DNA of 55,161 bases, the filler included, from Jimgerdemannia flammicorona (Eukaryota), in the NCBI GenBank assembly GCA_003990765.1. It is 2 parts of 2 records of this genome, joined end to end, with 100 filler letters (N's around TTAATTAATTAA, not from the genome) between each part and the next. Parts side by side here need not be neighbours in the genome. Positions count along the whole stretch, not along the records: positions 1 to 27,542 come from RBNJ01000622.1; 1 more part is not named here. One strand, written 5' to 3'. Positions 418 through 43,930 of this stretch are shown here, in pieces (positions within the stretch are counted from its first letter, which is position 1; every line of letters begins with the position of its first letter). Below the pieces are notes generated by a model, which worked only from the letters and a program-made list of their open reading frames with translations, ran no database searches and was not told the DNA's origin. The translations under genes were made by a program, and so were the position numbers.

Positions 418-419
418 GT

Positions 420-835
420 GGAGGATTTGGATTGGAGGATTCAGTTGAAGGATTTGGATGAGGATTCAGATTGAAGAATTCGAATTGGAGGATTCGAATT
501 GGAGGATTCGAATTGGAGGATTAAAATTGAGTGATTCGGATTGAGTGATTCGGATTGAGTGATTCGGATTGAGTGATTCAGATTGAGTGATTCGGATTGG
601 AGTGGTTCGGATGGGTGATTCGGATGGGTGATTCGGATGGGGCGATTTGGATGGGGCGATTCGGATTGAGTGATTCAGATTGAGTGATTCGGATTGGGGT
701 GGTTCGGATGGGTGATTCGGATGGGGCGATTCGGATGGGGCGATTCGGATTAAATCCGAGTTGATCCGGATGGCTTCGGATTTGAGATTCGAATCAAACC
801 GTCATGTGACGAATCGAATCCGGATTTGATTCGAA
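420..835. repeat. Subterminal tandem array of 13-14-bp units (gattcggattgagt variants)
   Basis: Many GATTCGG/GATTCGAA units next to the TIR; typical transposase-binding array. Confidence 0.85.
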
Positions 836-855
836 TTGACTCGTTCGGAGCACTA

Positions 856-3800: not shown

Positions 3801-4168
3801 TCTAGGAGCCCTTTCACCCAATCCACATGCTCCCCCCACACAGCAGGGCAGTAATAGGAGCCAACTGTAACTGGCTCCCAACCTGCACGAATCCACTCAC
3901 CCCAGACCAGCCTCTCCCCCCAGCTCCTCACATTCTGTATCTCCCCTCTGCCTTTCCGCACCAGAATTCTGACCTTGCTGTTCCAAATCGCCATGCCACC
4001 CCATTCCTTAGTCCATTCTATCCTATCAAAATTATCCTTGCACCTGACATCCTGCAAGAGGAAGAGATCGGCCTCCAATTCCTTCAACTAAGTAAAAATG
4101 TTCCTGCATCTAACTGTGCCCCTTAGCCCATTCACGTTCAAAGAAAAAATATTGGTTGTACTGTTCAT
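856..4168 (-). pseudogene. LINE ORF2 (AP endonuclease, RT, C-terminal Cys/His motif) with premature stops
   Basis: MNSTTNIFSLNVNGLRG; GGDFN; SDH; WRLNSSLL; NWRPIMLL; FLDQEKAYD; QGDPLSP; AFADD; CFDC...HWLGEC. Confidence 0.92.
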
Positions 4169-4198
4169 AATGAAATATGGTTTGTTTGCAATCAATCC

Positions 4199-6225: not shown

Positions 6226-6293
6226 AATACTAGTAGCTTTTCTCCAGAAACTGTGTCGAAAGTGTTGCCAAAGATTGTGTAACCTGAATGTTA

Positions 6294-9200
6294 TATCACT
6301 TCCTTAAGCTCCTCAACTTCCTTCTGAATCCATACAATATACCAGTCTACCACCTCCCAATCCTCAAGTACCCCCACCTATCTCCCCAGAAGTACTGCCA
6401 GCCATTGTGAAGCCCAAAGCACTCTCTGCTATCACTGCACACTCCTCCCTTTCCCTGCCTCCCTCCAGTATCTCTGAGCACTTGATTTCAACCTCTGCCA
6501 GCAATCCCCAATTACCAGGCCTTGCTTCTACCACCTTTCAATTTTCCTAATAACCTCCTTCTCTCAGGCTGCCCATAAAGTACCATCCTCCAACAAAGAG
6601 GAATTCAGTTGCCAATATCCTGGCCCATTCCCACTATCTCTGAACCTCTCTCTCCCTAGCAGGCCCCAATGATCTAACCATGGGCACCAAACCACCTCCA
6701 GCACAGTCCAGACATCTGCTCCCCAGCACTCTGCTGTCAATATCCAGTCAATTCTAGAACCCAGCCCTGCTGTCCAATGAGTATAAATTTGATGCTCTCC
6801 CCAGAACTGTCTTCCTGAATCAACCAAAGAACTCAATCTCTCCATCTCCATCCAATCCTCCAACCTGCCACTTCTGCTTCTCATTTCTCTCCCACCATCA
6901 GTCCTATCTACTATATTATTCCTTACCATATTGAAATTCCCCCCCAAGCAATTGATCTCTGTCCCACCCATGACACCAGCCTCTCTCAAATTTCTGATCC
7001 AATCTACCTGTTCCCCCCTTTCTACCAGGCAGTAATATGATCCAACTATCAAAGAGCTCCATCCAGGCCTCTTCCACACTCCCTACACTAACTAACTCTC
7101 CCAATATCCAATGTCACCAATGTCTCCTATCCCTTTTCAAACTAGGATACCCACTCACCCAAACCACACAGCTACCTCCCCCAAATCCCTAGTCCAATCC
7201 TGTAAGTCCACATCTACCTCATAACATATATTTTGCAGTAAGAAGAGATCTGTATCCAATCCCTTGAGCTACTCAAATATGAATTTTTGCTGAGCTGCTC
7301 CCCTCAATCTATTCACATTTAAAGAGAATATTCTAGTTGTACTGTTCATATTGAATAATGTTTGAATTTGAGAACTCAGCCTAGTATTCCATGCTCATCT
7401 CATCCCCAGTCAGATCTAATTGCCACTTTGCTTTCAAGTCACCTTCCATAGCAGCCTGAGTATCTAATGCCTCTAGGATCTCTTAACATTCTGCCCCATC
7501 TACCACCTCCATCTCTATCTGATAATCTGTACAGACCACTCTCCACTTCTCCAAGCCCTTCCTCAAATTCCACAAGTATGCTGCTTGGTTATTTGTAATC
7601 TCTCAAAGTTCCTCCTCCTGCTGATCATCTACTTAATACTTGACTGATTCCAAGAGTACTACTAGAATCTCATTTCTAACCTTCCTTGGTACCTCCTCAC
7701 CATGAAGGATTTCCTTCTAATGCCTATCTTCCATAATTCAGAAGTTCTCTCCCTCCAACTCCTCTGCTACCACCCCCTTTAGTGTCTTCTACAGCTACTT
7801 TCTCTTCATCCACTGCTTCAGCAATACCCTGGGTGATCCTCTCAACCCCCATCACTGGGTCCATCAGAGCACTCCTCCTCACAGATTCATCCCACTCCTC
7901 AGACACATCCAGCAATTCCTCCTTACTCCTGACCCCACCTGGAATACTATACTGGGGCTGTACACCTTTGCTCATTTCTGCATCTGCCTCCATGCCACCC
8001 TAACCCTCCTCACTTGGTCCTTTCTGGGCCTCACCTTGAGTAGTCCTATACTTCCCAGCCTATGCACTCTCCCACAGTCCTGCACCACCTTCTTCTATAT
8101 CACTGCCAGCCCCACTGCCTCCCAACTTCTCCAGCAGCTCCTTCTGGATTCACCTCCCCTGCATCTTCTCTCAAGTTGTCCAGTCCATCCTGATCCTCTT
8201 GCTATCCACCAATTTCACTACTGTCTTGGCTTCATACTCCTTCTAAGCCAACTGCTTCCTCTCAACTACTCCTACCAGGTCCTCAAGAGCCTCTAGCAAA
8301 TTCTCCTCCTCTTCTTGTATCCCTTTCACCCACAAGACCTTGTACTCCACTGAACTCTACTTGAGAGTCACCAGCCAGTCCCTCATCTTCCCTGTATTCT
8401 CCTTTTCAGCCAGCCTCACCCAGATGTCAACATCTCCAGTCTGAAGCTCAGTACCCTCTCAGACTCTGAACCTGATGTCCACTATTTCTCCATACTCCTT
8501 GACTGCTTCCACAATCAACTTCCTGGCCCTCTCTCTTAATACTGTAGGAAGATCCAGTACTATCAACTGTACCACCCAGGGGTCCCAGTACATACATCTG
8601 GCCATAGAGATCATCACTCTGCCCACCATTACCCCCTTCTCTATGGCCACCAACAATGACTTATCTTCCTCAAATCTGATCTCAATTTCTTTCTTCCCCT
8701 TCAAGAACTTCACTGATACTACCTCCTTTACCTCCTGCACCACCAGCCCTAAGATCATCCTCATGGTCACCACCAAGCTCTAGAAACACAGTGTGAGGGT
8801 GAATTCTGACCTTGATTTCTTGAGTAATGGTGCCACCACCAAACTTGTCACACAATCCACCAGGTTCCCAGGCCTTGTACCCCCCCCCTGTCCTGAACCA
8901 CCAACTACCATCACATCTGGATTTTTTTCCAGATCTCCAGTCACAGCTCCATCAGTAGTTACATCTCTAGCTCCTACTCCCCCCCCCTCCCCTACTGCCT
9001 GACTCTCCCAAGGGGGCCCCTCCCTGTCCCCCACAGTGGCTATCAAAGACTTCCCCAGACCCAACCAATTATTTAGCCCAGAAGTCATTCTCCTCATCTT
9101 GACCTTATCTGCAAAGGTCATCCTCCCTCCTCCTCATTGCCTCAATCCACCTCTTCCTCTACCTCTAGTGCCATGGTCCACCATAGAAGACCCCAGTATT

Positions 9201-9378: not shown

Positions 9379-11950
9379 TATCTGTCTTCTTTCTTCTTAC
9401 TGGTAACTCTTGTTATCTCTGAGTAGATAACCTTAGCTCCTCTGTGGTAGATATTCTCTGTTGTCTTATTGATAACTCTGATTTTTGCATATAGTAAGTT
9501 TTTCAATCTATTCAATCAATCAGTCTAGCTTAGAACTGAGGTCTTGAATTTTGCTTCTATTCTTCTTTTCTTCTTTGGCTGGTCTTCTTTCTTCAGATCT
9601 TTCCTATCCTTGGAGGAGTCCTTACAGAGCTTTGACCAGGATATCATTTTTGGCATCCTTTTTATCATGGTTACTCCAGGTAGTTCCTTATCTGATATCA
9701 AAAAATTCTTAGGCTGTATCGACTTATTCCTCAGATCTTCTGATGTCTAGAGTATAGACATACTGAGTAATGTTTGGCAGAATTCCATTTATGAAGGTCA
9801 TTGGACCTATAATGTTTTGGTTGGTAGCATTGAATCTGGCTGCATATATTCTCTTCTAAATTCTTGTAAAGAATACTCTGAGTGATTCTCTAAGATTCAT
9901 CTTTATTTTCATGATGGATTCTTGAGCTTTGTGGTGGGTCTCATTTTCTGTATATTTTTCAATAAGTCAATAGATTATGGCTTCATACTCTACTAGTCAA
10001 GTTGGTGCTATATTGATGGCTGCTCTAAGGTCTGAGTTTAGATCATTCCTTACTCAGGTGAAAATTTCTTTGACCAGTTCTCTGAGTTAGGCCTTATAGA
10101 TGGCAATTTTCCTTTCAGGAGTAAGGTTCTTCAGAGCTGTAATTCCTTTAATTCTATCAAGAAATTCTCTTGGGTCTTCTTTAGAGTATCTTGCAAAAGT
10201 TAGCAGTGGGTTTGCTATTTCATTATTACTGTCTTCTAATTCTAATTCTGGTTCTAATTCTGACTCTAGTTCAGATTCTGGTTCTGATTCAGATTTAGAT
10301 TCTGGTTTACTTTCTAAATTATTGCTAGAATTCAGAATACTTGAATATTCTGAGAATGGTGTTGAAGATCTTGGGTAAGGTAGAATAGGTCTGGGTATCT
10401 TTGAAGGGGCTACTCTTTGGTCTTCTTGTTCTGTGATAGCTAGTGGGAGAGGTTTAATAGATGAAATTGGTAAAACCTCTGCAAGAAATCAGACTTGTTC
10501 AATGAGGTCTTCAAGTTATTATACAAGCTCATTAAAAACTCTGGCAGGACTTTTTATATAACCTGGTTGAGATCTTTCTAATACTGAGTAGTTGGCAACT
10601 CTTAAAGTAATTACTTCTCTTTCTGTTCAAATGCTAGTAATGACTAGTTCTCTTATAGTAGTAGAGATTAGTATTATATCAAATATATCCAGTTTGACTG
10701 TGAGTTCTTGTAAGCTAAAAAGTTATATCAATTTTGAAATTTTCTCAGTTGAGTCCCCTAAATATAACTTATCTGACTCAATAGAGACAAATTATAAGAT
10801 TGGAAGTTAATATAGTTTGGCTTGAGCTCCTAATTACTTTGTCAAAAATAACAAAATGTTCTAAGATCTCTTGTTAGTATTTAGTGATATAATAGTCAAT
10901 CTAGATATAATAATAGTTTCTCTATTTGTATAGTGATTAATTTGAGTAGATTTCCTTATTAGGTCAGTTCTTGGGTATAGTAGTAATTTCATATAATAGC
11001 TGTGATCTTTATAGAGTATGAGCTGGATTTCTTATATAGATGATCTGGTAATTTAGCAGTTTCTTTCTTAAATGATAGATGATCTTCAAAAGTATACAAT
11101 TTCTGTATAATAATCTTAGTATAATGCTCTTATTTCTAAAAGTATATGATTTCTAGCAGATAACTCAATTTGGCAGATAATTTGAATGACTTAGTTTAGT
11201 GCAGATTTTTCTAAATCAGTGGCTTTCTGAGAATATCAGTTAACTTAATAACTTTAGATAACTTGGATTCTTAACAAGTATATCAAAGACTGGTTTCATT
11301 TATATAGAGTTATATTATAGATTAGCTCTACTGTAAAGTTATATCAGAAAAACTAGCTTAGTGATAAGAATCAGACTCTCTGAGAATAGTAGTAAATAAC
11401 TTGAAATTGATAAATATGTAGTATAGATTCTTCTGAATTAGTAGACTTCTTTAGAAAAAAACTTTTTTGGCAAAGTTATATCAAAGACTGACTTTATTTG
11501 TATAGGATTATATCATAGACTAGCTCTACTGTAAAGTTGTGTCAAAAAGACTAACTTTGTAGTAAGATAGTAGACTTCTTCTTAAAATGGCAGCTCTTTC
11601 TTGAGCAGTAGATTTACTCAAATTCTTCAGACTTATCTGATAAGTGAACCAAGGCTTGTATCAGAAAGAAAACTAGAGTAGAAAGAAAATACTGTTGCTT
11701 TAGATTCAATTTCAGACTGAGATTTATTCACTCTTATCTCTGGAGTATTTTATATAGTTATAATTGCTATCTGATTATTATATTACTAATTATAGATTGC
11801 TATCTATAGTAGATATACCTGGACAATATAGTATACTAGACAGATATAGTATATCTACTTGGTACAATATACTGGACTAGTATATAGATACTTCTAAAGA
11901 TGACCTGAGAGCAGTTCTAGTTCAAGAAAAACTAGTTCAGTAATATTATA
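9379..11950 (-). mobile_element. Old Ty3/Gypsy element: 5' LTR (~10763-11950), possible PBS and decayed gag
   Basis: LTR similar to the reverse complement of 13768-14893 + 23750-24113; gag-like remnant (TFA..EDPREFLDRI); PBS-like taggggactc next to the LTR end. Confidence 0.65.
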
Positions 11951-13200: not shown

Positions 13201-13964
13201 CTCTCTATATTATGAATCAGAGAATTAACTAGTATCTCTAGACTCTTATTCTCAGCTTCTTTCAATCACTTCTGGTTTCTCTACTCCAATTCCACTAAGC
13301 CAATAGAAACTTCTATTAGTAAATTCAGATTTATTAAGAGAATCTCATTTTGGCTAGATACTTATTATAAGTTTACTAACTACAGACCTACTATATAATT
13401 AGTAAACAGTTGCAGAACCTTCTAACTTCCAAGCTAACCTATATCAGAAATACTATAGATCTGATGTAAAGAAATATCATTGCTGCAGACAGATTATATA
13501 TACTCTATAAATAAAATATCAGAGTATTGATACAGATATAGTTCTCTTTAAATGACATATGTATAAGGAATAAATCTAGTCACCTATTTGAGTATTATTA
13601 ATTATATTGAAATTTCATTTTTAGAAGAAAAAGAAGAGCTAGAAAAATAAAGTAACTCAGATATAAATAAATATGATAGCTCAGGTATTGATACTGAAGA
13701 TACTTATAGATACTAAAATGATAACTAAAGAATAGTCTGAGATAGACCACTTTTTAGTAGAGACTTATATAATGAGCCAGCAGAAAAATATACCAGAATA
13801 CTATCTGAATTAGTTACTATAATATAGTCATATATTATAGTAAGTATACTAGATAATCATGAGTATAATAAGTAGTCAAAAATATCCTAGGATATCTAAA
13901 ACTACTTTATCATACTAACTTATAATTATAATTAGCTAGAGATATCTGAAAGAGTATATTTACC

Positions 13965-14070
13965 TATACTGAACTAGTATACTATACTAAATCAGTATAC
14001 TGTACTGAACTAGTATATTATACTGAATCAGTATACTATACTAAACCAGTATACTATACTGAACTAGTAT
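13965..14070. repeat. 18-bp tandem repeat (ctgaactagtatactata) within the old LTR
   Basis: About six visible units. Confidence 0.8.
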
Positions 14071-14893
14071 ATCTGCTATAAATAGTATTCTATAATTAGT
14101 CACATAGCAACCAGATAGTAACCAACTTATATAAAATACTCCAGAGATAAGAGTAAATAAACCTTAGTCTAAAAAGTTGAAATATAAATCAAAGCAAAAA
14201 CTACTAAAGATAATAAATATTGGTTCTCTTTTTCCTACTTCAGTCTACTTTTCAATATAAAGAACAAGTCTACATTTAAGAGTATTTGCTGCCTAAGTTT
14301 GAGTGAAGAACTTTATTGCTATTTGAAGAGAAACCTACCACTTAAGAAAAAGCTGCTATATTTTGGTCTGCTTGCCAGATAAGTCTAAAGTCTCTCTTAT
14401 TACAAAGTCAGTCTATCTTGATATAACTTCACAGTAAAGCTAGTCTCTTTTGACATAACTTTATATAAATGAAGTCAGTCTCTAATACAACTTTGTTAAG
14501 AGAAGAGAATCTGTATTATTCAAAAAGTCCACCAATTCAGAAAGAATCTGTATCATCTATTATTTTCAAGAAATCTACCTACATTTCAACTTATTTGATA
14601 CAACTTTACTATAGAGCTAATCTTTGATATAACTCCATATAAATAAAGCCAGTCTTTAATGTAACTTTGCTAAGAATCTATACTAAAACTAAGTTATCTG
14701 AATTATTTACTATCTGAGTTATTGAGTTATCTACTATCTGAGTTATTGAGTTATCTGCCATCTGAGTTATCTGAGTTATTATTCAAAAAGCCTATTAATT
14801 CAGAAGAATCTATACCAAATCAAAATATCTACCAAGTCTATATAAGGAATACCACCAAGATCATCATATAGAAATCATTTATCACTCAAGAAG

Positions 14894-16362
14894 TGTAGGC
14901 ACACAACCTCCAAGCCACTGAAATTACATGTTACCCTCTGAACAAATCTGGAAATCACCTGCTTGATCACAAAGCTGAGTCAAACTGAAGTCACAGCACA
15001 CAAAGCTGAGTCAATACAAAGTCATAGAATACAAGATTTACACAAACGAAATCTTACCAATCAGGATCAAATGTATATATACCAAGCACTGAGACATGTC
15101 AAATCAGAGAACCAAAACAAACAACAAACTACAACTTCCAAACACACAAACATGACCACCAAGATCTATACCCATATCCATACTGACATTTGGAATGTCA
15201 TTGTCAACCGAGCCACACCCCCTCTGCCCCTCATGAATATCCATAGCCTAGCACCCCTCTATTTCATGGAAGCCCGATGGAATGCTCTGAACATGCTTAG
15301 TGAGGCCCACCGAATTAGACAAATCTCAAGCTACTACCAGATCAGCCACCTCCTGGAAGACATGGTCGAAGACCACTATGATACAAACATTATACAGATG
15401 TCTCAACACCAGAAGCTCATCGTCTGTAAACATCAAGAACTCTTCTATGAGTATAGTATCTTTATTTCCTGCCTTCGAGTTACTACCAGCAAATTGGTTG
15501 CTACCCTGTCCTATGGCCAAATCGATGACATGATATAAGAACTCAACCAGAAGTACCTCAAGTATGTCAAAACTATAGACAGAACCTTCCCACACCCCAA
15601 TGATCATATCCTGCAAATGTCTCAAGTTGGATATGCCATGAAGGATATCTATGATATAATCTACTTCAATAAAGATGAAGCAGAAGACAATGATTCCTCT
15701 GACACTGACATAACCTCTAGCCAAGGATCTCTGCCAACCCTGACCACTCTGTCAATCTTGCTGATGAACTTACAATAGTTCATAACTGCATATGAGACTT
15801 ATTGGGACAATGACCACTGGCACAAATACCAACCTGCATTTACCCCTGACTACTTCAACTACAATGAAGAGACCAGAGAACACAACCTGTACCTCCAGAC
15901 AACCCTCGAGACTCGAACACACAAGAAAATTCCTAAATACTTCCCCACAATATCCCTTCACATAACTACTCCTAGTATAGCAATATCATGAATAGCAAAT
16001 AAACCTATTCAATAATCCACAAACCACTCTTAAGTAAATCTGCTCCCTGTTAGGTCCCACTCCTAACCCCATCATGAAATTTCCTAATTGGGTATTGTCT
16101 GCAGCAATACACCAATTCAACTAAGCTGGTCTTAGTTTTTTGAACTTCCCAAAATATGGAAAATCCTGAACATCCAGAACTAGTCTGAAAAAGGACTTTG
16201 GTTGAGACATCAACCCAATCTTGAAATCAATAAGCATAGAGGATGTACTCCATATGAGATTGATCTTGACCATAAAGAAACGGTCTTCCAGAGTATCCAG
16301 AATATTTAGAAAACCTTTCCAGAACTATATAATAGTTACCCTAAAAAAGCAACCCTCTTACA
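14894..16362 (+). repeat. LTR (1469 bp, internally deleted variant)
   Basis: TGTAGG...CTTACA; followed by act + TGGTAGTAGTGG PBS. Confidence 0.9.
15152..15911 (+). pseudogene. LTR-encoded ORF, C-terminally truncated copy
   Basis: MTTKIYTHIHTDIWNVIVNRATPPLP...; matches the other three LTRs. Confidence 0.75.
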
Positions 16363-16363
16363 A

Positions 16364-19300
16364 CTTGGTAGTAGTGGTTTATAACCCAATTCTGCTTCAA
16401 GATGCTTCCTCACCCTGCTACAAACCCCTCTGCGAATTCCTACAAGTTGGTATAAAGTCCAGCCTCTGAACTGGAATTTATCCAAACCATCTGACAATCT
16501 GGAGAGAATTGAACCTGATGTACAAGGACAATTTGACCTCCACACCTGCAACAAGTGGGACAAACTTCATTCAAAGAAAGAAGTACTCAGGTTAAACCAG
16601 CAAATAGGCAAAACCCTATTCACCAAACTCCTTGCACTACACCCAGCAAGTCAAGACAAAGAAGGTCTTATTGAAGCCTTCTTTACTCTTCTCAATAAGA
16701 GTTTTGTCAGCTCCACAAATCTGAGCGACTTAGGACAACCAGCAGCAGTCTTTCTAGCCTTAGTTCCTCACGAAGCCCAAGCCTCTGTAGCCAAGTGGCT
16801 CAACTCTACCGATTTTCACCATACCAGGACCAAGACTGCATTATACTACTGATTCTAGAACAACAAGGCCCGCTATATTCTTAAAGAAGAAGTAAGAGAA
16901 ATCCTTCATCAACTACCTGACCCTGAACCTGAAGCAGGCCCTACTACAGCCCTACCTGAATCTGAAACCAATACCGAACCTGAACTTGACTTTGAATTAA
17001 GTCCATCTGAAATCAGATATACAACTGATTCTGTCTACTTTGATGCTAAGCAAACCCAATTACACAGGGACCAAACTGAAGAAGAGGAGGAGTATCTCAG
17101 TGAATTCGATCCCAGATATACTACCAAAGGAGAAGTACCTCTATCAGGACAGAATATACCTATACAGCAACAAATAGATATCTATCAAGCCCTCACTCCA
17201 GACCTACAACTACTACTCTAGCAACTTACACAGACCTAAAGAATTCCATCACACTCTGCACCAGTACCTCAAGTAGTACCAGTAACACCACTACCAGCAG
17301 TCCAACCACCTCTAGTAAATAACATGGCGAACCAACAGATTCTCAACCTCACAGCCCAGATAGCCATAATGGCAGCAACCATTACAGCCTTAGCTGAACA
17401 GATCCGACCTACCAAAAATCTGAGCCTACCTACCTTCAATGGTACTGCACAAGAAGTCCAAAGCTTCATTAGTGTAGTTGATACCAACTTCAAAGCCAAT
17501 CAATGGACTAATGAGTGAGTTGCTGACTGCATTCTGACAAACAATCAAGACCATACTCTGGAACAACTCTTTGCTACCACTATAGCCTATGTCTGCTGAG
17601 TTGTTACATTCTTCCGAGGACCTGCTAAAGAATGGTGGCAAACCCTTCCTGAAAAACCTCTCACATGGGATACCCGACCTGCAGTAGTTGCTCAGAATGT
17701 AGCAAACAATGCCCCAGGATATAGAGCCCATCCTGTAGCCCCTGGACTCAAACAACTCATGATTGCTCAATACCACAGCAAAACCATGATTGCTGAATCT
17801 CGAGTAAAACTCTGCAACCTCAAATTTGATGTACATAGCAAAGAAGAATTCAAAACCTTCTGTACAAAACTTGAGTCACTCCTGAACACTGTTGGTCTAG
17901 GATACATTGCCAATGATGAAGCATGAAATGGTATAAGAGCAGACCATTTATTTGATACCCTGCCTGAATGGCTTACTAGAAAAATCCAAGAACAAGGCTG
18001 CCCAGTTGGTTGTGACCACCAACAATGGTGCCTGGCAAGAATCAAGACCATAGTCAAGTGAATCCTAACAGCTGGACCAATTCTGCCCCGAAGGCAATTT
18101 AACAACAAGGAAAAGACTTAGACCAAAAAAGAAGAACCCAAGCATGAAGCATCCCGAGCTCTCTCCACATCCACCTCTTGGACACCCAGAAATCATGAAC
18201 CCACCCAGCCAAGTACCTTCAAGAAACTTACTGAAGATGAAAGGAATGAACTTCAAAGAAGCAGAGCATGCTTCTATTGCCAAAAGATAGGACACATGGC
18301 CAGTGCCTGCCCTAACCAAAAACTCTGAACAGCAATATGAGCAACTGTTACCACTCTGCACCACCTCAACAACCTGACCACCAGAATACTGGACTTTGTC
18401 AAGTTAAGACAAACTGCTAAGGCCCCAACCAAAGGAAGTTAGAAAGCAGCTGAATATGACCTGTATGCAGCTGAAGAAGCTACAGTTTCCAACCAAGAAG
18501 TCAAACAAGTCTATACAGGAATCAGTATCCAAATCCCTGAAGGACATGTTAGAAGAATATGCTGTTACAGCAGCCTAGCACTGAAAGGACTCTCAGTAGA
18601 AGGAGGAGTCATTGATGAAGATTACATAGGCGAAATTATTGTCCTCATTCAAAACCACAGTTAGACACTCTTCAAGATCCTTATTGGCTTCTGTATTGCA
18701 CAGATCCTATTCGAAAAAATCGAGTCAACCCTGATAGTTAAGGAAGTCCCTGAACTACTGCCCACCATCCGAGGATCCAAAGGATTTGGCTCATCGAACA
18801 AGGCACCAGCCCAACCTACTATGAGCAAAGAAGAACAATTCTACAAGAAGATCGAAGATGGATATATACCAAGTGACTGATGCCCTCATGGTATTGGAAT
18901 ATACTCTTCCCGAATGATTGATGATTGCTTCTCTTGTATCAATGAACTGGCTCAGAGAAGAACCAACAAAAGGAAAGCTCAAACAACTGAAATTACCACC
19001 ATTGGATCAGACAAACTGCTTACACTTAAGACTTTTATCAATCGAGCACCTGTCAAGATCATGATAGACAGTGGTGCCTCAGGCAACTTTATCAGTGAAG
19101 AGACAGCCAACAGACTTAAGGTCTTCACCTCTCCAGTACAGCAAACTCAAGCAGTTGCTACAGCTGATGGAATCTCACATGTTATTAGTAAAGAAGTCTG
19201 CAATCTACCCTTCCGAATTGGCAACTACTGAGTATATGTTACCCTCCAAATCGTACCACTTCCTGACAATGAAATCATTCTTGGAACCCCATGGTTAAAA

Positions 19301-22260
19301 TAAGAGAACTCCATGATTGATTGGGTAAACCATTCTCTGATCATTAAGAAAGGATGCCACAACTTCAAACTATAAGGTGAAAAGGACCCACTCAACTCTG
19401 GTGACTCTAGACCAAAGATCACCCATATCAACAAGCTACAACTCAAGAAATTGGCCAAGAAGTGCTCTCTCTTTGCCATCTCCATCTGTCCATCCAAAGG
19501 AGAACCCGAGAACTCTGAAGAAGATTTTTTCAAAGTTGACAGCCATGTCAGACCACTACTCTAGAAATTCCGGGACATATTTCCAAAGAAGCTCCTGAAA
19601 GGCCTACCTCCCAAATGAGTAGTAGACCATACTATCAAGACTATTCCAGATGCCAAACCAGCCTTCAAGTTAATCTACCACATGTCTCCAAGAGAAATTA
19701 ATGCACTCAAGAAGGAAATCGACGAACTCCTAGAACAAGGATTCATCAGACCTAGTGTATCACCCTATGGTGCATCAGTCCTCTTCATTGTCAAGAAAGG
19801 AGGAGACCTGTGAATGTACATTGACTACTGCAATCTCAATGAACAGACCATCAAGAACTGTTGCCCACTACCAAGGATCGATTTAATATTCAATAGACTT
19901 ACCAACCCACAATTCATAAGCTCTTTTGACCTGCGAAATGGCTATTGGCAAATTGCTATGAAAGAAGAAGACATCTACAAGACAGCTTTCCGAACTCACT
20001 ACAGACACTTCGAGTTCCTGGTTATGTCCTTTGGCTTAACTAATGCTCCAGCAATCTTCCGGACACTAATAAATACCATTCTGCATCCATACCTGGACAA
20101 ATTCATTGTTGTCTACATTGATGACATCCTAGTCTTCAGCAAAACCCTGGAGGAACATCTTGAACACCTTGAACTAGTACTACTGAAACTCCAAGAAAAC
20201 TGACTCTTTGCAAAACTCAGCAAGTGTGAATTTCTCCTGAAAGAAATTCAATTCCTTGGACATATTATCACTCCAAATGGAATCAAAGTGGACTCCAGCA
20301 AAATCTCTGCAATCAAGGATTGGCCCAGACCCAAGAAGCTGAAAGACCTCCAGTCATTCCTGGGATTAGCAAACTATTATAGATGATTTGTTGCCAACTT
20401 TGCTAAAATTGCTACTGCTCTCACCCAAATGACCAAGCACAGCAAGAAATAAGAACAACCCTGGACCATGAAACAAGAGAAAGACTTCAACAATCTTGTA
20501 ACTTGGGGACCCAAACAAGATACTGCCTTTCAAGCACTGAAAGATGCCCTGATAACCACTCCAGTACTTTAAGCAGCAAATTCTGCCCTACCATATGAAG
20601 TCACTACTAATGCCTCTGACCTAGTCCTTGGAGCAGTACTCATGCAAGAAGGACACCCTGTGGCCTATCACTCCTGCAAGTTCAATGATGCCAAAATCAA
20701 CTACACAACTCACGAGAAGGAAATGCTAGCCATCGTAGACACTCTGATCAAATGGTGACCATATCTAGAAGGAGTACACTTCACCATATTGACTGACCAT
20801 AAATCATTAGTCAATATCAAGACACAGGCTACCCTTTCTCGAAAGCAAGCCAGATGGATGAAAGTCCTCACCAACTTTGATTACAAAATCCTGTATCACC
20901 CTGGCAAAGAAAACATTATTGCTGATGTAATCTCAAGACCACCTATTGAAGAAGTTATCCAAACTCTGATCTTGGTTACCAACACTATCATGGAACAAAT
21001 CATCACAGCATATGTTGATGATAAGGAAGCTCAAGCACTCTGAGAAATCCTGAACAGTGATGATGCTGACAAGCATACCCAGTACAATCAATACCAACTC
21101 AAGGACAATGCTATCTACTATAAGAACAGACTGTATGTCTCAAACAACCGAGACCTCTGAAGGACTATCCTATTCAAATGTCATGATGCTCCTACAGCTG
21201 GACATTTAGGATTTGATAAATGTTATGAAGATCTCCCAAAACTTCTATTGGCCCCACATGGCAGATCAGCTCAAAAGCTATATCACTTCCTGTGATGCCT
21301 GCCAACAAAACAAGTCCTCAACACTAGCAAAATCTGGCTTACTTCACTCTATCCCAGTACCATCTGTGAATTGGGAACAAATCTCTATAGACTTCATTGT
21401 ACAACTACTCTGAACCAAGAATGAGAAAGATGCAATTGTTGTCTTTGTAGACTATCTCAGCAAACAAGCTCACTTTGTACCAACTACTACCACTGCAACA
21501 GTACCAGACATAGCTATACTCTTGTTTGACAACATCTTCTGCTATCATGGTCTTCCTAAGATCATTGTTAGTGACCAAGATCCAAAATTCACCAGCCATT
21601 TTTGGAAAGCCCTTCATGCATACCTTGGAACAAAACTTATACTATCCACAGCCTTTCACCCTGAAACCGATGGCCAAACTGAAAGAATGAACTGAACTCT
21701 AGAACAAATGCTAAGGAACTATGTTTCCTACAGACAAGATGATTGGCATGAACACCTGACAGCAGTTGAGTTTACTTATAACAATAGCAAACAAGCCTCC
21801 CTGGGAATGACCCCATTCTTCACCAATACTGGACAAAATCCAAACACCCCTTTGACACTTATCCGAATCACTGAAGAGCCCTCCACAGTCGAAGCTGTTG
21901 AAGAATTCTTACTCCAAATGTGCAATTTAAGCCAGATTGCCATCGAGAATTTATCACAAGCTTAAGAACAACAATCACAGTATATTAACCAACACCACCG
22001 AGAAGAAACCTTTGATATTGGAGAAAAAGTTCTCCTGGACATCTGAGGATACCGAGTTGACAACCTGAAGCACAGACCATCTACGAAGCTGAACAGCAAG
22101 TTTATTGGACCATTTGAAGTTATTGCACAAGTCTCTCCAACCTCCTATAAACTGGCACTACCGGATACCATTAAGATTCACCCAGTCTTTAATGTTCAAT
22201 ATCTCAAGTGATACAATGAGAATGATGACGAGCTATTTCCAAACTGGACCATCAAACCAC
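16364..22260 (+). pseudogene. Gag extension-Gag-dUTPase-PR-RT-RNaseH-integrase polyprotein, copy A (chromodomain lost)
   Basis: CFYCQKIGHMASAC; GVIDEDYIGEI, RGSKGFGSS; IDSGAS; YIDDIL; HPETDGQTER; FIGPF. Confidence 0.93.
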
Positions 22261-22275
22261 CCACTGCTACTAAGT

Positions 22276-23744
22276 TGTAAGAGGGTTGCTTTTCTAGGAT
22301 AACCATTATGTAGTTCTGAAAAGGTTTTCTAGATATTCTGGATACTCTGGAAGACCATTTCTTTATGGTCAAGATCAATCTTATATGGAGTACGTCCTCT
22401 ACACTTATTGATTTCAAGATTGGGTTGACATCTCAACCAAAGTCCTTTTTCAGACTAGTTCTGGATGTTCAGGATTTTCCATATTTCAGGAAGTTCAAGA
22501 AACTAAGACCAGCTTAGTTAAATTAGCGTATTGCTGTAGACAATACCCAATTAGGAAATTTCATGATGGGGTTAGGAGTGGGACCTAACAGGGAGCAGAT
22601 TTACTTAAGAGTGGTTTGTGGGTTATTGAATAGGTTTATTTGTTATTCATGATATTGCTATACTAGAAGTAGTTGTGTGAAGGGATATTGTGGGGAAGTA
22701 TTTAGGAATGTTCTTGTGTGTTTGAGTCTTGAGGGTTGTCTGGAGATATAGGTTGTGTTCTCCAGTCTCTTCATTGTAGTTGAAGTAATTGGAGGTGAAT
22801 GCAGGTTGGTATTTGTGTCAGTGGTCATTGTTCCAATAAGTCTCATATGCAGTTATAAACTGTTATAAGTTCATTGGCAAGGTTGGCGGAGTGGTCAGGG
22901 TTAGCAGAGATCCTTGGCTAGAGGTCATGTCGGCGTTAGAGGGATCATTGTCTTTTGCTTCATCTTTATCGAAGTGGATTATATTGTAGATATCCTTCAT
23001 GGTGTATCCAACTTGGGGCATTTGCAGGATATGATCATTGGGGTGTGGGAAGGTTCTATCTGTGGTTTTGATGTACTCGAGATACTTCTGGTTGAGTTCT
23101 TGTATCATGTCATTGATTTGGCCATAGGACAGGGTAGCAACCATTTCGCTGGTAGTAACTTGAAGGTGGGGAATAAAGGTACTGTACTTGTAAAAGAGTT
23201 CTCGATGTTTGTGGGCGATGAGCTTCTGGTGTTGAGACATCTGGATAATGTCTGTATCATAGTAGTGTTTGACCATATCTTCCAGGAGGTGGCTGATCTG
23301 GTAGTAGCTTGAGATTTGTCTGATTCAGTGGGCCTTGCTAAGCATGTTCAGAGCATTCCATCAGGCTTCCACAAAGTAGAGGAGTGCTAGGTTATAGATA
23401 TTCATGAGGGGCAGAGGGGGTGTGGCTCAGTTGACAATGGCATTCCAAATGTCAGCGTGGATATGAGTATAGATCTCAGTGGTCATGTTTGTGTGTTTGG
23501 AAGTTGTAGTTTGTTGTTTGTTTTGATTCTCTGATTTGACGCGTCTCAGTGCTCGGTATATATGCATTTGATCCTAATTGGTAAGATTCCATTTGTGTAA
23601 ATCTTGTGTTCTGTGACTTCATATTAACTCAGCTTTGTGTGCTGTGACTTTGGTTTGACTCAGCTTCATGATCAAGCAGGTGATTTCCAGATTTGTTCAG
23701 AGGGTGACATGTAATTTCAGTGGCTTGGAGGTTGTGCGCCTATA
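22276..23744 (-). repeat. Inverted LTR (1469 bp) with adjacent inverted PBS (22261-22272)
   Basis: Reverse complement of 14894-16377, same internal deletion. Confidence 0.92.
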
Positions 23745-24317
23745 AGAAGGAATCCACTTGTACTATATAGAGATCATCATGCTACACAAGATCATTATGT
23801 CAGAAATCACATACTTTTAGAGGTTGTTATACTATATAGAGACTGTTATACAGAAATTACATAAGAAATCTACTCATGACATATAGAGATCATTATATGA
23901 AATTATCACTATATCTAAGAACTGTCTAAATAAGGAAATCTGCCAGAATCAACCACTATATCTAGACTTGACTATTATACCACTAAATATCAATAAGGAT
24001 ACCAAGAAATCTTAGAATGTTTTATTGCTTTTTAACAAAATAACTGAGGGCTCAAGCCAAACTACATCAATTTCCAGTCTTGTAATTTATCTCTATTGAG
24101 CCAGCATATTACAATATTAATATATTAATTTATATTTAATCTATTATCTTATAGGATATTTATTATAATTATAAAATATATTACTGTCTATTTGAGATAG
24201 TTTTTAAAAATAATTTGAACACTGCTGAGTTATAATGGTGGATGCTTAAGTAAACCCCCATTTTTGTTGAAGTAAGAGTTATACTTTAAATATAACCTCA
24301 TTATTGTGCATCACCCT

Positions 24318-25542
24318 TCACCATACCTCTGCATCTGTTTGCTGGCTAATACCCCCTTCATTACCATCCACCTTTAGCGTCACAGTCCAGAATCCGGAAT
24401 CTACGGCCCGCAACCGCCTGCGCTCAAAAATGTGCACGCACAGGTCGTTAAAGATCATGTTGTTATCGAACTCGGTTGGAAGCGGCGTACATGCGACCAG
24501 CGGAACGGCTAAAATCATGTAAGGGGCTTCACGGCGAAGATGCGAATCTGTTTGGCTGAGGAAAGAAAGTTTAACATATATAAATATAAAAGTGTCGCGT
24601 ATCATTGAGTAAAGAAGAAACCCGTTTTCTTCTCAATACCCACCTTTCAACGTACAATCCAAACCGATTTCCGATAATTACAACTTTCTCTAGCGCCTGT
24701 GCATTCCAATTCGCCGACAGAAGATTGCTGTAAAGAACTTTGTTGCAATGTGGCATGTAGAACAGTGTCATTGCATGGACGGCGCGTTTGGCTTGCTGAG
24801 GGAGAAGAGGTATGGAAGTAAGATATTGCAAGTACTGGGTATGTTGCTCCAATTGAACGACATGCTTACTTCATTCTCCGAAATCAGTTCTACACCATAG
24901 TGTTCCAGCAATTGCCGATCAATGTGCGTCATAACAGGGTCAAATATATATACTTTGCCGTCTATCTGAGTAATTCAAAATGGTATTTCGACTCAATGAT
25001 GGCGCGTACCATCGTTTATTGCGAGCATACTGCATACCTGTAAAGTTTCTCGCATGATCAACATCAACGCGAATTGGAATTGTGCGTTCCGTGATTGGTG
25101 CATTGAGCCAACTCCATAGCAGACAATGTCGTGCAGATGCGTAGGTATAAGGTGGTTGTGTAATATGCCTGTACCGGTTCGAGATATTGTACAGATCATG
25201 GATGTGTGACACTGAAGGGATGTATCGCGTGCATGCAATTCCGTACCTTGAAAATCCCTGTGAAATTTACTATCTACTATGGCTTCCCTAGATTTGTAAG
25301 ATACTTATTAGCACGGATTTAAAATCTTCGCTGCACCTATATTTCCCAAATACACACCTCCGCTTCTCCACGATTTCTACTGCGTCACTCAGAATCCATT
25401 CGTCAACATCCTTCACATGTTTTTTTTTGCCCTTGCCCGGCTTTTTCAATGCCCATATATCTCGCTCAACAATGCCTATGAGGTCTCCGCCAGCACCGTG
25501 CAAACGCTTGCTCTTGTATCGAAACTTGCCGCTGGTAACCAT
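24318..25542 (-). CDS. SRR1-domain protein (SRRD / yeast BER1-like), multi-exon; 5' exon structure uncertain
   Basis: Exons IVCYGVGS...NAQFQFALML; YIFDPVM...LLEHYG; TLFYMPHC..LYSNLLSANW...IIGNRF; FNDLCVH, separated by GT-AG introns. Confidence 0.85.
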
Positions 25543-25709
25543 TGTGAATGGTCGGTTGTCTTCCTCTCTCTTTTTGAATACGAATTAGAAAAATTGTGAC
25601 TCAATCGTTTTAATATTTAACAAACTGACACCTTATTTATATGGTCAGCTTCTCATAGACCGAACTTATAATTACAGTAAATCGAAGTGTATATGTCAGT
25701 CTCTGGGAT

Positions 25710-27228
25710 TTATACCTGACTGGAGATGGTACCAGCTGCCCCGATATCCTCTCTCATAAAGGCATCGGGTAAAGGATCGCGTCCAAGGAAGTCGCGAACC
25801 ATATCCATAGCATCCCTGAAAGAAGATAATAAGTGTGTTTGAATTATTGTATCGTTGGTAAATACATTACTTTGCTCAGTTATGCAATAAATGTCGCCTA
25901 CCAGCTCCCGCCACGCTCGAGAATCTTACGCCTGTATCTATTGCCAACAGCGCTATCCAATGGGTCGCCACTGAATTTGGTGTAGAACATGTCGCTTGAA
26001 TATACTTTGCTCCACATATAACCATAGTAGCCTGTTGTTATGAATAAGTCAGCGTAAGCGAATAAGGGAAACCGCATGAGATCTTTGGGTATCGAGACAT
26101 ATGTACGCTTGTTTGTGTACATGGAAATAAACAATGTCACAAAATCAAGCACTCAAGAGGAATCATACCTGCATCGTATCCGAAAATCATGTGGCTGGAT
26201 GCACATTGAAAAGGATGGAAGGTGATTATTGCATTCCCTAGTAATCGTCCTTGCAACAAATAAGCAAAAGCATACATGCTTACCCGAAGGCAGCTTGGCC
26301 AAACGAACCCTGAGACCGTAATACAGGTAGGATGCGAGAGGAATGAGAATATGTCACAACCATGAACGTTCTCAGATGAAGGGAAATCGCTTTACCTTGG
26401 GTGCTTCAATTAAAGAAATATCTCGGCACAAGTTATTAAATAGTGTAGTCGTGTCCACTTTTTCCTCTGGCAGAAGGAATGAATGCGTGGCAATTTGCAA
26501 TGAGTAACGATCATAGAAAAGTCTAACAAATCGGGTAGGTGAAAATACATTTCCCCACCTTCGCTGCCGTGCAACCTCATGTCAAACACACCGAAGAACA
26601 ACTGCCTAAGATTGAACAGTCCAGCACCGGCTTGCTTTGCCCGCACAATCTTTTCAATGAGCTCGTCTGGAATTGGCTCTCCCGTCTTATAGTGCGAAGA
26701 AAGTCGGCGAAGTGAATTGGATTGCCAACACCAGTTCTCGAGCATCTGTAGTCCAAATGGAAAGATTTAATGAGATGGAATCGGCCATTGTAGTTTGTAA
26801 AAACCGAAAGTACTGACTGAACATCATTCTACCTGAGAAGGGGCCTCGACAAAGTCTTCGTCAGCAAACCAAATATAACCAACTTCAAACGCCATTTTTG
26901 TGTAAAGATTGCATGACGGCGCGTTGCATGTTATACTACTATTTATGACTTCACTCACCTTTTTCAACGTTGGTGCCATGGAAACGCGACCATTTGGTCC
27001 TAGAGCATAGATGGTGCATGACGTGACCCTGTAGAAATATTCAATAAAATTTAATATAGCTCCCACGAGATGCAAGCAGGCGATGACTGAAGATACGGAG
27101 AAGGGGCGGGGTAAGGAATTGTGCATAGATTCTTACCAATTCGTGGAAGAGCGTGACAACTTCATCGTGCTTTAAGAGAGAGGGCTTGTCTTCCGTTCTG
27201 TTGATTGCGCAAGGTATGTCCAAACAAA

Positions 27229-27270
<42 letters not shown>

Positions 27271-27474
27271 GCATCAGAATAAGAAATAAGCATGTCGTAT
27301 AGTGAAGAATAGTAACGTCTTCCGCTTTTGAGGATCTAACTATATAAAGGGGTACATACGGCATGGTAAAATTGGCTACCATAGCAGCAATTGGCGGAAC
27401 TCTTGTGGGTTCGAGCGTATGCTCATCAAGCGTCGTATATGACGCTTGGAAAGGGATACACGCGGCGTGAGAAT
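25710..27474 (-). CDS. M3-family zinc metallopeptidase (thimet oligopeptidase/neurolysin/Prd1-like), 3' part; 5' part lost at the gap
   Basis: PSLLKHDEVVTLFHEL/GHVMH (HExxH across an intron), DFVEAPSQ/MLENWCW, FG/H..GYDA/GYYGYMWS, RYRRKILERGGS; about ten exons; stop at 25710-25712. Confidence 0.95.
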
Positions 27475-27542
27475 CTGTGATAAAGGAAAGGATGACAGGC
27501 AAGTGCGTTCACTGTGAGTGTACGGATGGTGAAAGACGACAA

Positions 27543-27642
27543 NNNNNNNNNNNNNNNNNNNNNNNNNNNNNNNNNNNNNNNNNNNNTTAATTAATTAANN
27601 NNNNNNNNNNNNNNNNNNNNNNNNNNNNNNNNNNNNNNNNNN
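27543..27642. other. Assembly gap: 100 nt of N containing a TTAATTAATTAA six-frame-stop linker
   Basis: Directly visible; the two sides may not be contiguous. Confidence 0.97.
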
Positions 27643-29500: not shown

Positions 29501-30156
29501 GGGCTCTGTATATAGCTGAGAGGATACAAAATGATATAATTAGACTCCCACAACTCTTCAACCATTCTAAACAATTTATAACTTACTAAATAGCTCATCT
29601 TCTTTTTTATTTTTTTTTTGAATCATGGCTCAAAATCATTATCTTTATTATCTAAATATATATATATAGCTCAAAATTATTATCAAAATTATCATCAAAG
29701 TTAGAGCAAGCCTTACTTAGTAATTTGCAAACAGAAAGAAGTAACTCAGATCTAAACTTATCTTCTGATATTAGTATAGATACAGAGATATAGATATATC
29801 AATATACCTAAAATACATTGGATTATATGATATAAAGATATATATTAGCATATATATTAGTATATATATGTAAGCGCACAACCTCCAAGCCACTGAAATT
29901 ACATGTCACCCTCTGAACAAACCACTGAAATCTCACATGACCTCCGAACAAATCTGGAAATCACCTGCTCGATCACGAAGCTGAGTCAAACCGAAGTCAC
30001 AGTGCACAAAGCTGAGTCAATATGAAGTCACGGAACACAAGATTTATACAAACGGAATCTTACCAATTAGGACCAAATGCATATATACCGAGCACTGAGA
30101 CGTGTCGAATCAGAGAACCAAAACAAACAACAACCATAACTTCCAAACATACAAAC

Positions 30157-31253
30157 ATGACCACTGAGATCTACAACCATATCCGCGCTGACATTTGGAA
30201 TGCCATTGTCAACTGAGCCACACCCCTCTGCTCCTCATGAATATCCATAGCCTGGTACCCCTCTACTTCATGGAAGCCCGATGGAATGCCCTGAACATGC
30301 TTAGCGAGGCCCACCGAATCAGACAAATCTTAAGCTACTACCAGATTGGCCGCCTCCTGGAAGACATGGTCGAACACTACCATGATACAGACATTACCCA
30401 GATGTCTCAACACCAGAAGCTCATTGCCCGCAAACATCGAGAACTCTTCTATGAGTACAACACCTTTATTCCCCGCCTCTGAGTCACTACCAGCGAAATG
30501 GTTGCTATCCTATCCTATGGCCAAATCGACAATATGATACAAGAACTCAACCACAAGTACCTCGAATACGTCCAGACCACAGACAGAACCTTCCCGCACC
30601 CTGATGACCATATCCTGCAAATGCCTCAAGTTGGATACACCATGAAGGACATCTACGATATAATCCACTTCGACGAAGATGAAGCAGAAGACAATGATCC
30701 CTCTGATGCTGACATGACCTCTAGTCAAGGATCTCTGCCAACCCTGATCACACCGCCAAACTTGCTGATGAACTTGCAACAGTTCATAACTGCATACAAG
30801 ACTTATTGGGACAATGACCACTGGCACAAATATTAACCCACATTTACCCCTGACTACTTCAACTACAATGAAGAGACCGGAGAACACAACCTGTACCTCC
30901 AGACAACCCTCGAGATTGAACCAACCACTCCACCACCTGAGTACAAGTGACACGAACCACAGCCGCCAGCTTACTACAATCCTGCAACTCATAGTGCTGT
31001 AATTTATAGAAGATATGCAGACAGTGAATCTGATGAAAGCGAAGACAATACACCCATCCTTTGCCCACCAACACCTTATCCAGCATACAAAACAGATGAT
31101 GCTATCCTGTGGGATGGAGATGAAGTCCCAATGTATTACTACCTCAGTCAACAAGGAGAAGTAATCCGCGAACCACTCTTCCTAGATGACTACTTCATCA
31201 GAGATGATGCAATCGATGGTGATGTTATCGAAGACTACCCAGATAGTGTCTAA
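30157..31253 (+). pseudogene. LTR-encoded ORF (~365 aa consensus, unknown function)
   Basis: acaaacATG start; few C->T-type stops and one 1-bp deletion; ends DYPDSV*. Confidence 0.78.
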
Positions 31254-31255
31254 AC

Positions 31256-31452
31256 CTATAAATAGTCTAGCAGTCATAGTATAGATAGATTAGCCTTGTA
31301 CGACATGACTGTGAACTGACTCAGCAGTCAGACGATCTCTTGACATATCAGATCACACTTGTACTATGTGACTGCATTCCAACTCAGCAAGGCACTTAGT
31401 GCTACATCCATATTCAGCATAGTCCAGATAGCCCCTCACTAGTATAAATACC
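31256..31452 (+). promoter_or_regulatory. Two TATA boxes (cctataaata ~31256; gtataaata ~31442), probable LTR promoter
   Basis: Canonical TATAAATA motifs just after the LTR ORF, conserved in the 3' LTR. Confidence 0.55.
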
Positions 31453-31951
31453 CCCTCCCCCAGACCTCAGAATCTCAGACTTGAACAGACTTGAACAGAC
31501 TTGAACAATCTGAACACAACTCCTGAATACTTCCCCACAATACCCCTTCACACAAATACTCCTAGTATAGCAATATCATGAATAGCAAATAAACCTATTC
31601 CATAACCCACAAACCACTCTTAAGTAAATCCACTTTCTGTTAGGTCCTACTCCTAACCCCATCACGAAATTTCCAAATTGGGTATTGTCTGCAGCGATAT
31701 GCCAATTCAACTGAGCTGGTCTTAGTTTCTTGAACTTCCTGAAATATGGAAAATCCTGAACATCCAGAACTAGTCTGAAAAAGGACTTTGGTTGAGATGT
31801 CAACCTGATCTTGAAATCAATAAGCATAGAGGACATACTCCATACGAAATTGATCTTGACCATAAGAAAACAGTCTTCCAGAACATCCAGAATATCCAGA
31901 AAACCTTCTAGAACTACGTAACAGTCACCTTAAAAAGTAACCCTCTCACAA

Positions 31952-37900: not shown

Positions 37901-38033
37901 TGGCAATAAGAACTATCCTGAGTACCTTGTCAAATGGAAAGGTTACCTGACCCATGATGTAACCTAGGAACCCAAGACCAATCTTCAGAATGCTACTGAT
38001 CTAGTTCAGGAATATGATTCCTTGAACAACTAG
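31952..38033 (+). pseudogene. Gag extension-Gag-dUTPase-PR-RT-RH-IN-chromodomain polyprotein, copy B
   Basis: Gag ATG 32912; [61 protein letters not shown]...YLVKWKGY. Confidence 0.95.
31954..31965 (+). promoter_or_regulatory. Primer-binding site TGGTAGCAGCGG (probably initiator tRNA-Met)
   Basis: TGG start 3 nt after the LTR; resembles iMet-type PBS. Confidence 0.75.
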
Positions 38034-38445: not shown

Positions 38446-38459
38446 AAGAAGGGGAGAGT
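38446..38459 (+). promoter_or_regulatory. Polypurine tract aagaaggggagag
   Basis: Immediately precedes the 3' LTR. Confidence 0.9.
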
Positions 38460-43899: not shown

Positions 43900-43930
43900 A
43901 GGATGGGATCATTTTCTAACATTATTCCTT

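Follow-up and report, generated by a model that had tools for sequence, protein, structure and literature searches.

Inversions and inverted terminal sequences are known from retroelements of several kinds. In L1 elements, 5' inversions arise by twin priming, in which a second, misplaced priming on the plus-sense template leaves microhomology at the junction within an insertion that has a normal target-site duplication (TSD). In retroviral autointegration, a single cDNA gives rise to a molecule with inverted long terminal repeats (LTRs), the LTR tips joining an internal target and giving circles. DIRS retrotransposons have inverted terminal repeats and a tyrosine recombinase in place of the DDE integrase (PMC7192593, PMC3950715). 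For defective HIV-1 proviruses, one survey invokes plus-strand strong-stop DNA that has landed on another template to account for an aberrant LTR structure, and assigns inversions to two categories with one provirus each, out of 78 unique proviruses (PMC9278108). Hairpin-forming transposon loci that trigger silencing, among them Mu killer and an antisense nested EVD insertion, are treated in another paper (PMC11624286). Here we describe a locus to be set beside these systems: in a 55,161-nt stretch of the Jimgerdemannia flammicorona genome (hereafter, the window), a decayed Ty3/gypsy element at 14889-23749 carries two LTRs in inverted orientation between the two copies of a single 5-bp TSD.

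An ordinary Ty3/gypsy chromovirus insertion of the same family (29869-40542; Table 1) lies in the same window and served as reference. The inverted-LTR copy has the same primer-binding site (PBS), LTR tips and domain order and, like it, a short TSD, and the two interiors are collinear, 15909-22261 aligning with 31497-37840 of the full-length copy at 90.75% identity over 6357 columns with 17 gaps (BLAST). Unlike the reference, in which the LTRs are direct (identical at 1965 of 2097 positions) and the right end consists of chromodomain, polypurine tract (PPT) and LTR, the copy described here closes with an inverted LTR plus PBS, and both of its tips are U3. A repeat search of the window returned the inverted arms as 14896-16377 and 22261-23742 (1482 nt, 91% complementary, 5883 nt apart); in full, the LTR, 3-nt spacer and 12-nt PBS of 14894-16377 recur as the reverse complement at 22261-23744, each LTR continuing inward with the same 15 nt (ACT plus the 12-nt PBS). 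Because the inverted arm carries a PBS, it derives from an LTR-PBS unit and not from a PPT-preceded 3' LTR. The original prediction had placed a gypsy element at these coordinates, with two inverted LTRs of 1469 bp that share a deletion, U3 ends at both integrated termini and AGAAG at both outer ends. Repeat search, BLAST and alignment reproduced the coordinates, the LTR lengths and the U3 termini, the AGAAG copies were read directly, and the common deletion proved to be two, since both arms lack blocks of 31 bp and 586 bp that each LTR of the full-length copy contains.

Collinearity ends at the equivalent of 37840, and the interior therefore stops between the integrase SH3 domain (SH3_Tf2-1) and the chromodomain. 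In the full-length copy, the domain order is dUTPase, protease, reverse transcriptase (RT), RNase H, integrase (rve, 32.8 bits) and chromodomain (Chromo, E 2.7e-7, from ~37872); as the last of these is absent from the inverted-LTR copy, which ends before it, the latter is a truncated derivative of a chromovirus. The absence of both chromodomain and PPT, which had also been predicted, was borne out by Pfam and by a motif search: the family PPT motif, taken from the full-length copy and from a loose end of soil-metagenome contigs, occurs a single time in the window, at 38443-38459, and not in 14889-23749. No purine run of at least 11 nt was found near the right arm, and a central PPT near the breakpoint was rejected, none being present. 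Among the features by which LTR retrotransposons are recognized, direct LTRs and a PPT are missing from this copy, while its pol order (protease, RT, RNase H, DDE integrase) is that of Ty3/gypsy elements (Metaviridae); many stop codons interrupt it, as they do the full-length copy. The insertion is a dead-on-arrival Ty3/gypsy element of the chromovirus type, belonging to a family with the order dUTPase-protease-RT-RNase H-integrase.

The inverted terminal repeats are shared with DIRS elements. Unlike these, the insertion contains Integrase_H2C2, rve and SH3_Tf2-1 remnants, has a 5-bp TSD, and belongs to a family with normal members whose LTRs are direct. Since a DDE integrase is present and a Pfam search of the remaining open reading frame (ORF) pieces on both strands gave no match to a tyrosine recombinase, a DIRS identity is rejected, in agreement with the original prediction. 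These pieces gave no further domain matches, the sole exception being a sub-threshold match to XPG_N in a 198-aa open frame of the left LTR (14942-15538, plus strand; E 4.2e-4, 21.2 bits with the cut-off at 22). The matching frame of the right arm gave no XPG_N match, and the likeness may be due to chance or to an old captured fragment. In the full-length copy, a dUTPase domain lies upstream of the protease (33845-34240, plus strand, E 1.1e-18); dUTPase-bearing Metaviridae have been described in fungi.

Table 1. Positions of the inverted-LTR insertion, its parts, the repeat that it interrupts and the reference copy, counted along the window.
Feature	Position	Strand	Remarks
Older repeat, second uninterrupted copy	10705-11873	-	Empty-site comparator
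Older repeat, left half	14012-14888	+	Matches reverse complement of 11873-11236
Left TSD copy, AGAAG	14889-14893		Read directly; same as 23745-23749
Left LTR	14894-16362	+	1469 bp; starts TGTAGG, ends TTACA; U3 end outermost
Spacer ACT and 12-nt PBS TGGTAGTAGTGG	16363-16377	+	Family form TGGTAGCAG[C/T]GG
Decayed internal region	16378-22261	+	gag to integrase SH3; collinear with 31966-37840 of full-length copy
Protease (aspartyl)	18881-19231	+	Pfam
RVT_1	19814-20203	+	Pfam
RT_RNaseH	20573-21043	+	Pfam
Integrase_H2C2	21210-21413	+	Pfam
rve	21414-21695	+	Pfam; 27.3 bits on fragment, under 32.6 cut-off
SH3_Tf2-1	22047-22211	+	Pfam
AACCACC, 7 nt	22255-22261		Internal sequence (also full-length copy 37834-37840) and tRNA positions 59-65
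ACT and TAGTAGCAGTGGGTGGTT	22255-22275	-	Read on minus strand, at inner end of right arm
Right LTR	22276-23744	-	1469 bp, reverse complement; U3 end outermost (TATAGG on minus strand)
Right TSD copy, AGAAG	23745-23749		Read directly
Older repeat, right half	23750-24156	+	Matches reverse complement of 11038-10705; collinear with left half
Full-length family copy (reference)	29869-40542	+	LTRs 29869-31950 / 38460-40542, PBS 31954-31965, PPT 38443-38459

The AGAAG copies abut the LTR tip of each arm, and their length of 5 bp lies within the 4-6 bp typical of integrase. Outside them, an older repeat resumes on both sides. The joined flanks (14320-14893 plus 23750-24156) align collinearly across the join with a second copy of this repeat (~10.7-11.9 kb, reverse orientation, ~62-77% identical), and pairwise matches pair 14012-14701 with the reverse complement of 11873-11236, and 23858-24104 with that of 11038-10773. 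An alignment gap of ~15 nt in the second copy coincides with the join, which prevents a single empty-site AGAAG from being read directly. The interrupted sequence had been predicted to be an older LTR; its collinear continuation on both sides of the insertion stands, and it is better termed an older repeat, which may be an LTR, a terminal inverted repeat or a foldback element. A lenient alignment ran through both flanks and did not fix its ends. The older repeat is itself one arm of an inverted pair (10705-11873, minus strand, against 14012-14893 and 23750-24156, plus strand; ~62-77% identical), with a 2.1-kb AT-rich spacer that includes an 18-bp tandem repeat at 13947-14090. The full-length copy is without a clean 5-bp TSD, ATATA (29864-29868) standing opposite TATAG (40543-40547), with TATA common to both if shifted by one, and its surroundings are an AT-dinucleotide context.

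By their sequences, the two arms look like once-identical copies that have decayed equally since. When both arms were aligned with the two LTRs of the full-length copy (MAFFT), 14894-16377 and the reverse complement of 22261-23744 had the same base at 1352 of 1484 positions and no indel separated them, and the BLAST alignment of the arms is likewise gap-free; identity of the arms to the reference LTRs is 87.8-89.1% (1300-1318 of 1480-1481 positions). Within the window, where these two LTRs provide the comparison, 68 of the 1480 gap-free columns join both arms against both reference LTRs, while the conflicting groupings receive 13 and 13; 1208 columns are invariant, 4 have other patterns, and private changes number 53 in the left arm, 50 in the right arm, and 28 and 43 in the reference LTRs. 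The claim that the LTRs are closer to each other than to other family copies holds on this scale. The sister grouping, the two common deletions, the lack of indels and the balance of private changes (53/50) fit LTRs that were identical at insertion. Changes between the arms cluster at CpG and CpA (in a tally over 30 context classes); 103 of the 132 arm-arm differences could be polarized, 90 of these being C>T or G>A, and all of the remaining 29 are transition-type pairs. Divergence is 8.9% between the arms versus 6.3% between the LTRs of the neighbouring full-length copy, which makes the inverted-LTR insertion the older of the two.

Eight public runs matched the window, all soil metagenomes (best share of sampled words, 0.21), and four of them (X1-X4) were compared over 16400-24400, a stretch that starts inward of the left arm. 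In soil metagenomes of three studies, relatives 93-99% similar were present as short contigs of high summed depth across 16400-24142. At most differences, T or A in the window stands against C or G in the relatives, as would be expected if the window copy had decayed by C-to-T change. In all four runs, loose ends at 22699 show that most relatives carry the block deleted in the inverted-LTR copy, and a loose end at 23736 corresponds to the family PPT-LTR boundary. The alignment of one contig (X1, record 8) ends at 22261. Among the contigs listed for the four runs, none bridges 22261 or 23744/23745, which is neutral as to the reality of the junction.

The inner junction of the locus is unusually informative. 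The window reads ...CATCAAACCACC/CACTGCTACTAAGT/TGTAAGAGG... at this point, the interior of the full-length copy reads ...CACCAAACCACCTGCACC... at the corresponding point, and the left PBS region, when reverse-complemented, reads ...TTATAAACCACTACTACCAAGTTGTAAGAGG.... Internal homology extends to 22261 and the inverted arm begins at 22261, so 1 nt is common to both, and the inner end of the arm is the exact 3' edge of the 12-nt PBS. The adjoining internal bases extend an initiator-type tRNA-Met sequence by another 7-8 nt. Plus-strand strong-stop DNA ends in a copy of the last 18 nt of the primer tRNA, because RT halts at the modified A58.

The tRNA in question was found by scanning metagenomes with the reverse complement of 22251-22269, one base being optional to allow for the extra T-loop residue of initiators. 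Among the 19 loci returned, the match in one (L013) is the 3' end of a tRNA-Met(CAT) gene (ARAGORN call at 1125-1198, minus strand; Rfam tRNA model, 53.1 bits at 1197-1126), with A1 and T72, an anticodon stem closed by a GGG/CCC run, and ATCGAAA as its T-loop, which we take to be hallmarks of eukaryotic initiator tRNAs. ARAGORN found no tRNA in the other 18 loci, and none of the 19 resembles the window past the motif (BLAST, no match at 1e-5); thus, the same junction was not found elsewhere in this set. A scan of viral contigs with the 3' half of the L013 tRNA gave no matches. The L013 locus itself contains seven tRNA genes within ~1.2 kb (68-1198, minus strand: Ile-TAT twice, Leu-TAA, Glu-TTC, Gln-TTG, Arg-TCT and the initiator-like Met-CAT), with tRNA-like fragments between them and AT-rich surroundings.

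The 12-nt PBS is complementary to positions 65-73 plus CCA of this tRNA from a metagenome contig, and window positions 22254-22269 equal positions 58-73 of the gene (1197-1126) at 16 of 16 nt. The minus-strand sequence of 22272-22255 (TAGTAGCAGTGGGTGGTT) agrees at 17 of 18 positions with the complement of the tRNA's 18-nt 3' end, CCA included. The inverted arm may on this basis be an LTR to which the copied terminus of a natural initiator-type tRNA is attached, although 7 of the nucleotides in question are also internal. When up to 3 mismatches were allowed, the 18-nt tail motif had its sole window match at the junction, with 1 mismatch (0.09 expected; 9 of 100 shuffles gave a match). The 5.9-kb interior contains a single AAACCACC and two copies of AACCACC, and the junction falls on that site; AACCACC at 22255-22261 is proposed to be the junction microhomology. 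The PBS region of the element matches the tRNA for 12 nt and then continues TTTATA (TTTACA in the full-length copy) instead of GTGGTT. The internal site and the PBS region have AAACCAC in common, and a join by way of that homology would be 3 nt shorter than the one observed, which fits the tRNA-copy version rather than the element's own homology. Autointegration, with which the locus shares LTRs inverted relative to each other from one cDNA, differs in that LTR tips join the internal target; here, the tips are joined to chromosomal DNA with a TSD, and autointegration is rejected because the internal junction lies 15-21 nt beyond the LTR tip, at the end of the PBS or tRNA copy.

A probable account of these features is that strong-stop DNA mis-annealed within the interior, at a site of plus sense, and that the resulting cDNA, with U3 at both of its ends, was inserted by integrase in a single event. 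Plus-strand strong-stop DNA would have been made normally, running from U3-R-U5 through ACT into an 18-nt copy of the 3' end of the initiator tRNA primer. The family PBS matches just the first 12 of these nucleotides, which leaves the last 6 (GTGGTT) without a partner at the normal landing site. In place of the normal second strand transfer, the 3' tail GGTGGTT would have paired with AACCACC on the plus-sense strand, in the linker between integrase SH3 and chromodomain that holds the sole AAACCACC of the interior. Extension of this tail to the 5' end of the plus-sense strand, plus the reciprocal extension, would yield a duplex in which LTR-PBS-gag...integrase is joined to a reverse-complement PBS-LTR, with a U3 tip at both ends and without chromodomain, PPT or 3' LTR. 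The U3 and U5 tips of the inverted-LTR copy have the same first 6 nt (TGTAAG), and integrase could on that account have paired two U3 tips as it does a normal pair, inserting the U3/U3 molecule once and producing the 5-bp duplication AGAAG. Use of two U3 ends by integrase is known in vitro. We infer the order of these events, a plus-sense template that may have been RNA or DNA, and a host tRNA that has the T-stem seen in L013. A single insertion of U3/U3 DNA, as the original prediction had it, is the most economical reading, to which plus-strand strong-stop DNA is added here as a concrete source.

In its use of one round of reverse transcription, the proposed course of events recalls defective HIV-1 proviruses, which the survey presents as rearranged integrated products of a single such round; the inversions there, in the text available, are not described as whole-LTR inversions with two U3 tips, and no tRNA-tail microhomology is reported (PMC9278108). 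The inversion within a single retrotransposition event is shared with L1 twin priming. There, however, a non-LTR element is target-primed, with the end of the target DNA as primer; here, strong-stop DNA in a particle, followed by a DDE integrase, is proposed.

Several points tell against a mis-primed strong-stop strand. No base of the junction strictly requires a tRNA, the same 8 nt standing in the interior of the full-length copy, and since internal sequence runs to 22261 and the 12-nt PBS starts from 22261, a blunt or 1-nt join would yield the same letters. The match to the L013 tRNA is partly circular, because the gene was found by querying with the junction sequence. The part of the match that is independent of the search is AAACC, positions 58-62, which are conserved in initiator tRNAs. 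L013 is an AT-rich metagenome contig with no ORF longer than 115 aa, and the acceptor stem of its tRNA-Met has a C6-A67 mismatch; as the PBS of the full-length copy (TGGTAGCAGCGG, ...CAGCGG) would fit G67, the host tRNA may differ at position 67. The arms are only 91% identical, and the comparison extends to two other LTRs. The data also offer no account of how synthesis of the right arm's second strand was finished. Finally, a full-text literature search, outside which most subscription journals lie, found neither a report of integrase using two U3 ends in vivo nor one of inverted LTRs with a common TSD in any gypsy or copia element, so a prior description is possible.

An unlikely alternative, and the one that survives best, involves two molecules and one integration. 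The integrase complex would have brought together the U3 ends of two molecules, a full-length cDNA and a separate short strong-stop duplex made up of an LTR and the tRNA copy, and inserted both ends in concert; the free PBS end would then have been closed onto a resected internal cDNA site by microhomology-mediated end joining of the host. In vitro, two separate donor ends are routinely integrated in this concerted way, and this course would leave the same anatomy, namely a U3 tip on each side, a single 5-bp TSD, an arm whose inner limit is the strong-stop 3' end, and a 7-nt microhomology; no sequence feature separates it from the single-molecule model. What tells against it is the need for extra steps, with ~2.7 kb (chromodomain, PPT and 3' LTR) lost and an end joining that happened to use the one site matching the tRNA tail.

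An assembly artefact, in the form of a chimeric join of two loci at 22261 or an inverted chimera from sequencing, is highly unlikely. No listed soil-metagenome contig bridges 22261, and the ~240-Mb Jimgerdemannia flammicorona genome is reported in a review to consist of more than 77% repeats (PMC10386755). A chimera, however, would not have the halves of a single older repeat, each with the same 5 bp, on its two sides, and the overlap at the join, 1 nt or, on the tRNA reading, 8 nt, is much too short for misjoining at a repeat; moreover, there is no N in window positions 1-27542. The arms differ at 132 of 1484 positions and enclose 5.9 kb of sequence in unique order, unlike the palindromes that arise from missed adapters or amplification, and a missed-adapter palindrome is rejected on the same two grounds. 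Least credible of all are two independent, opposite insertions of a deletion subfamily into the older repeat, followed by a deletion from an internal point to the PBS edge, or some other later rearrangement, since, although the region is a dense repeat nest with inverted pairs of other families in the window and the 9% divergence of the arms permits independent origins on identity alone, this course would need the same 5 bp at both outer ends by chance (1 in 1024) or a target hit twice, no detectable loss of the older repeat between the sites, LTRs that by coincidence are sisters, lack the same blocks and have diverged in balance, and a deletion ending by chance exactly on the PBS edge beside a tRNA-like continuation.

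Other features of the window are recorded here for completeness. Exons with SRR1 and peptidase M3 domains lie at 24271-27508 (minus strand), 0.5 kb from the insertion; one of them is 100% identical over its aligned part to two Jimgerdemannia flammicorona proteins, and as both of these carry SRR1 and peptidase M3 domains, the public gene models fuse the two. A second RT-bearing element, with RVT_1 matches only, is present as two inverted copies ~33 kb apart, at 910-9000 (minus strand) and 41805-47188 (plus strand); these are 64-68% identical over up to 5.4 kb and extreme in strand composition, with GC skews of ~-0.45 and +0.45, respectively, and the former has internal direct repeats at ~3.1-kb spacing. 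Near-palindromes lie at 41460-41784 (~330 bp, 73% identical) and 51259-51697 (~440 bp, 83% identical), and two runs of 44 N (27543-27586 and 27599-27642) are separated by 12 bases.

The locus is most likely the scar of a copying error, rare and unusually readable, and not a working element; as a single decayed copy, it has the weight of a well-resolved anecdote, a single-locus curiosity. If the proposed origin by mis-primed strong-stop DNA is true, this fossil records a natural plus-strand strong-stop DNA, its length agreeing with a halt of RT at the primer tRNA's modified A58. It would also record the priming of a strong-stop strand at a wrong, microhomologous site and the acceptance of two U3 ends by an integrase in vivo, and all three are usually seen in test tubes alone. 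That such 'inside-out' U3/U3 insertions are a recurrent by-product of the 6-nt unpaired tail that the 12-nt PBS leaves on every strong-stop DNA, and that their LTR hairpins seed RNA interference on the family as a brake similar to Mu killer and made by the element's own RT, is a doubtful extension of this idea. The loci of the latter kind are alike in having inverted terminal sequences whose read-through could give double-stranded RNA, and unlike in that they arose by genomic rearrangement or nested insertion, rather than by the one-step reverse-transcription error proposed here (PMC11624286). The Jimgerdemannia flammicorona insertion would thus illustrate a one-step route from such an error to a long inverted-repeat locus, with arms of 1.5 kb, and loci of this type are suspected triggers of transposon silencing in other systems (PMC11624286).

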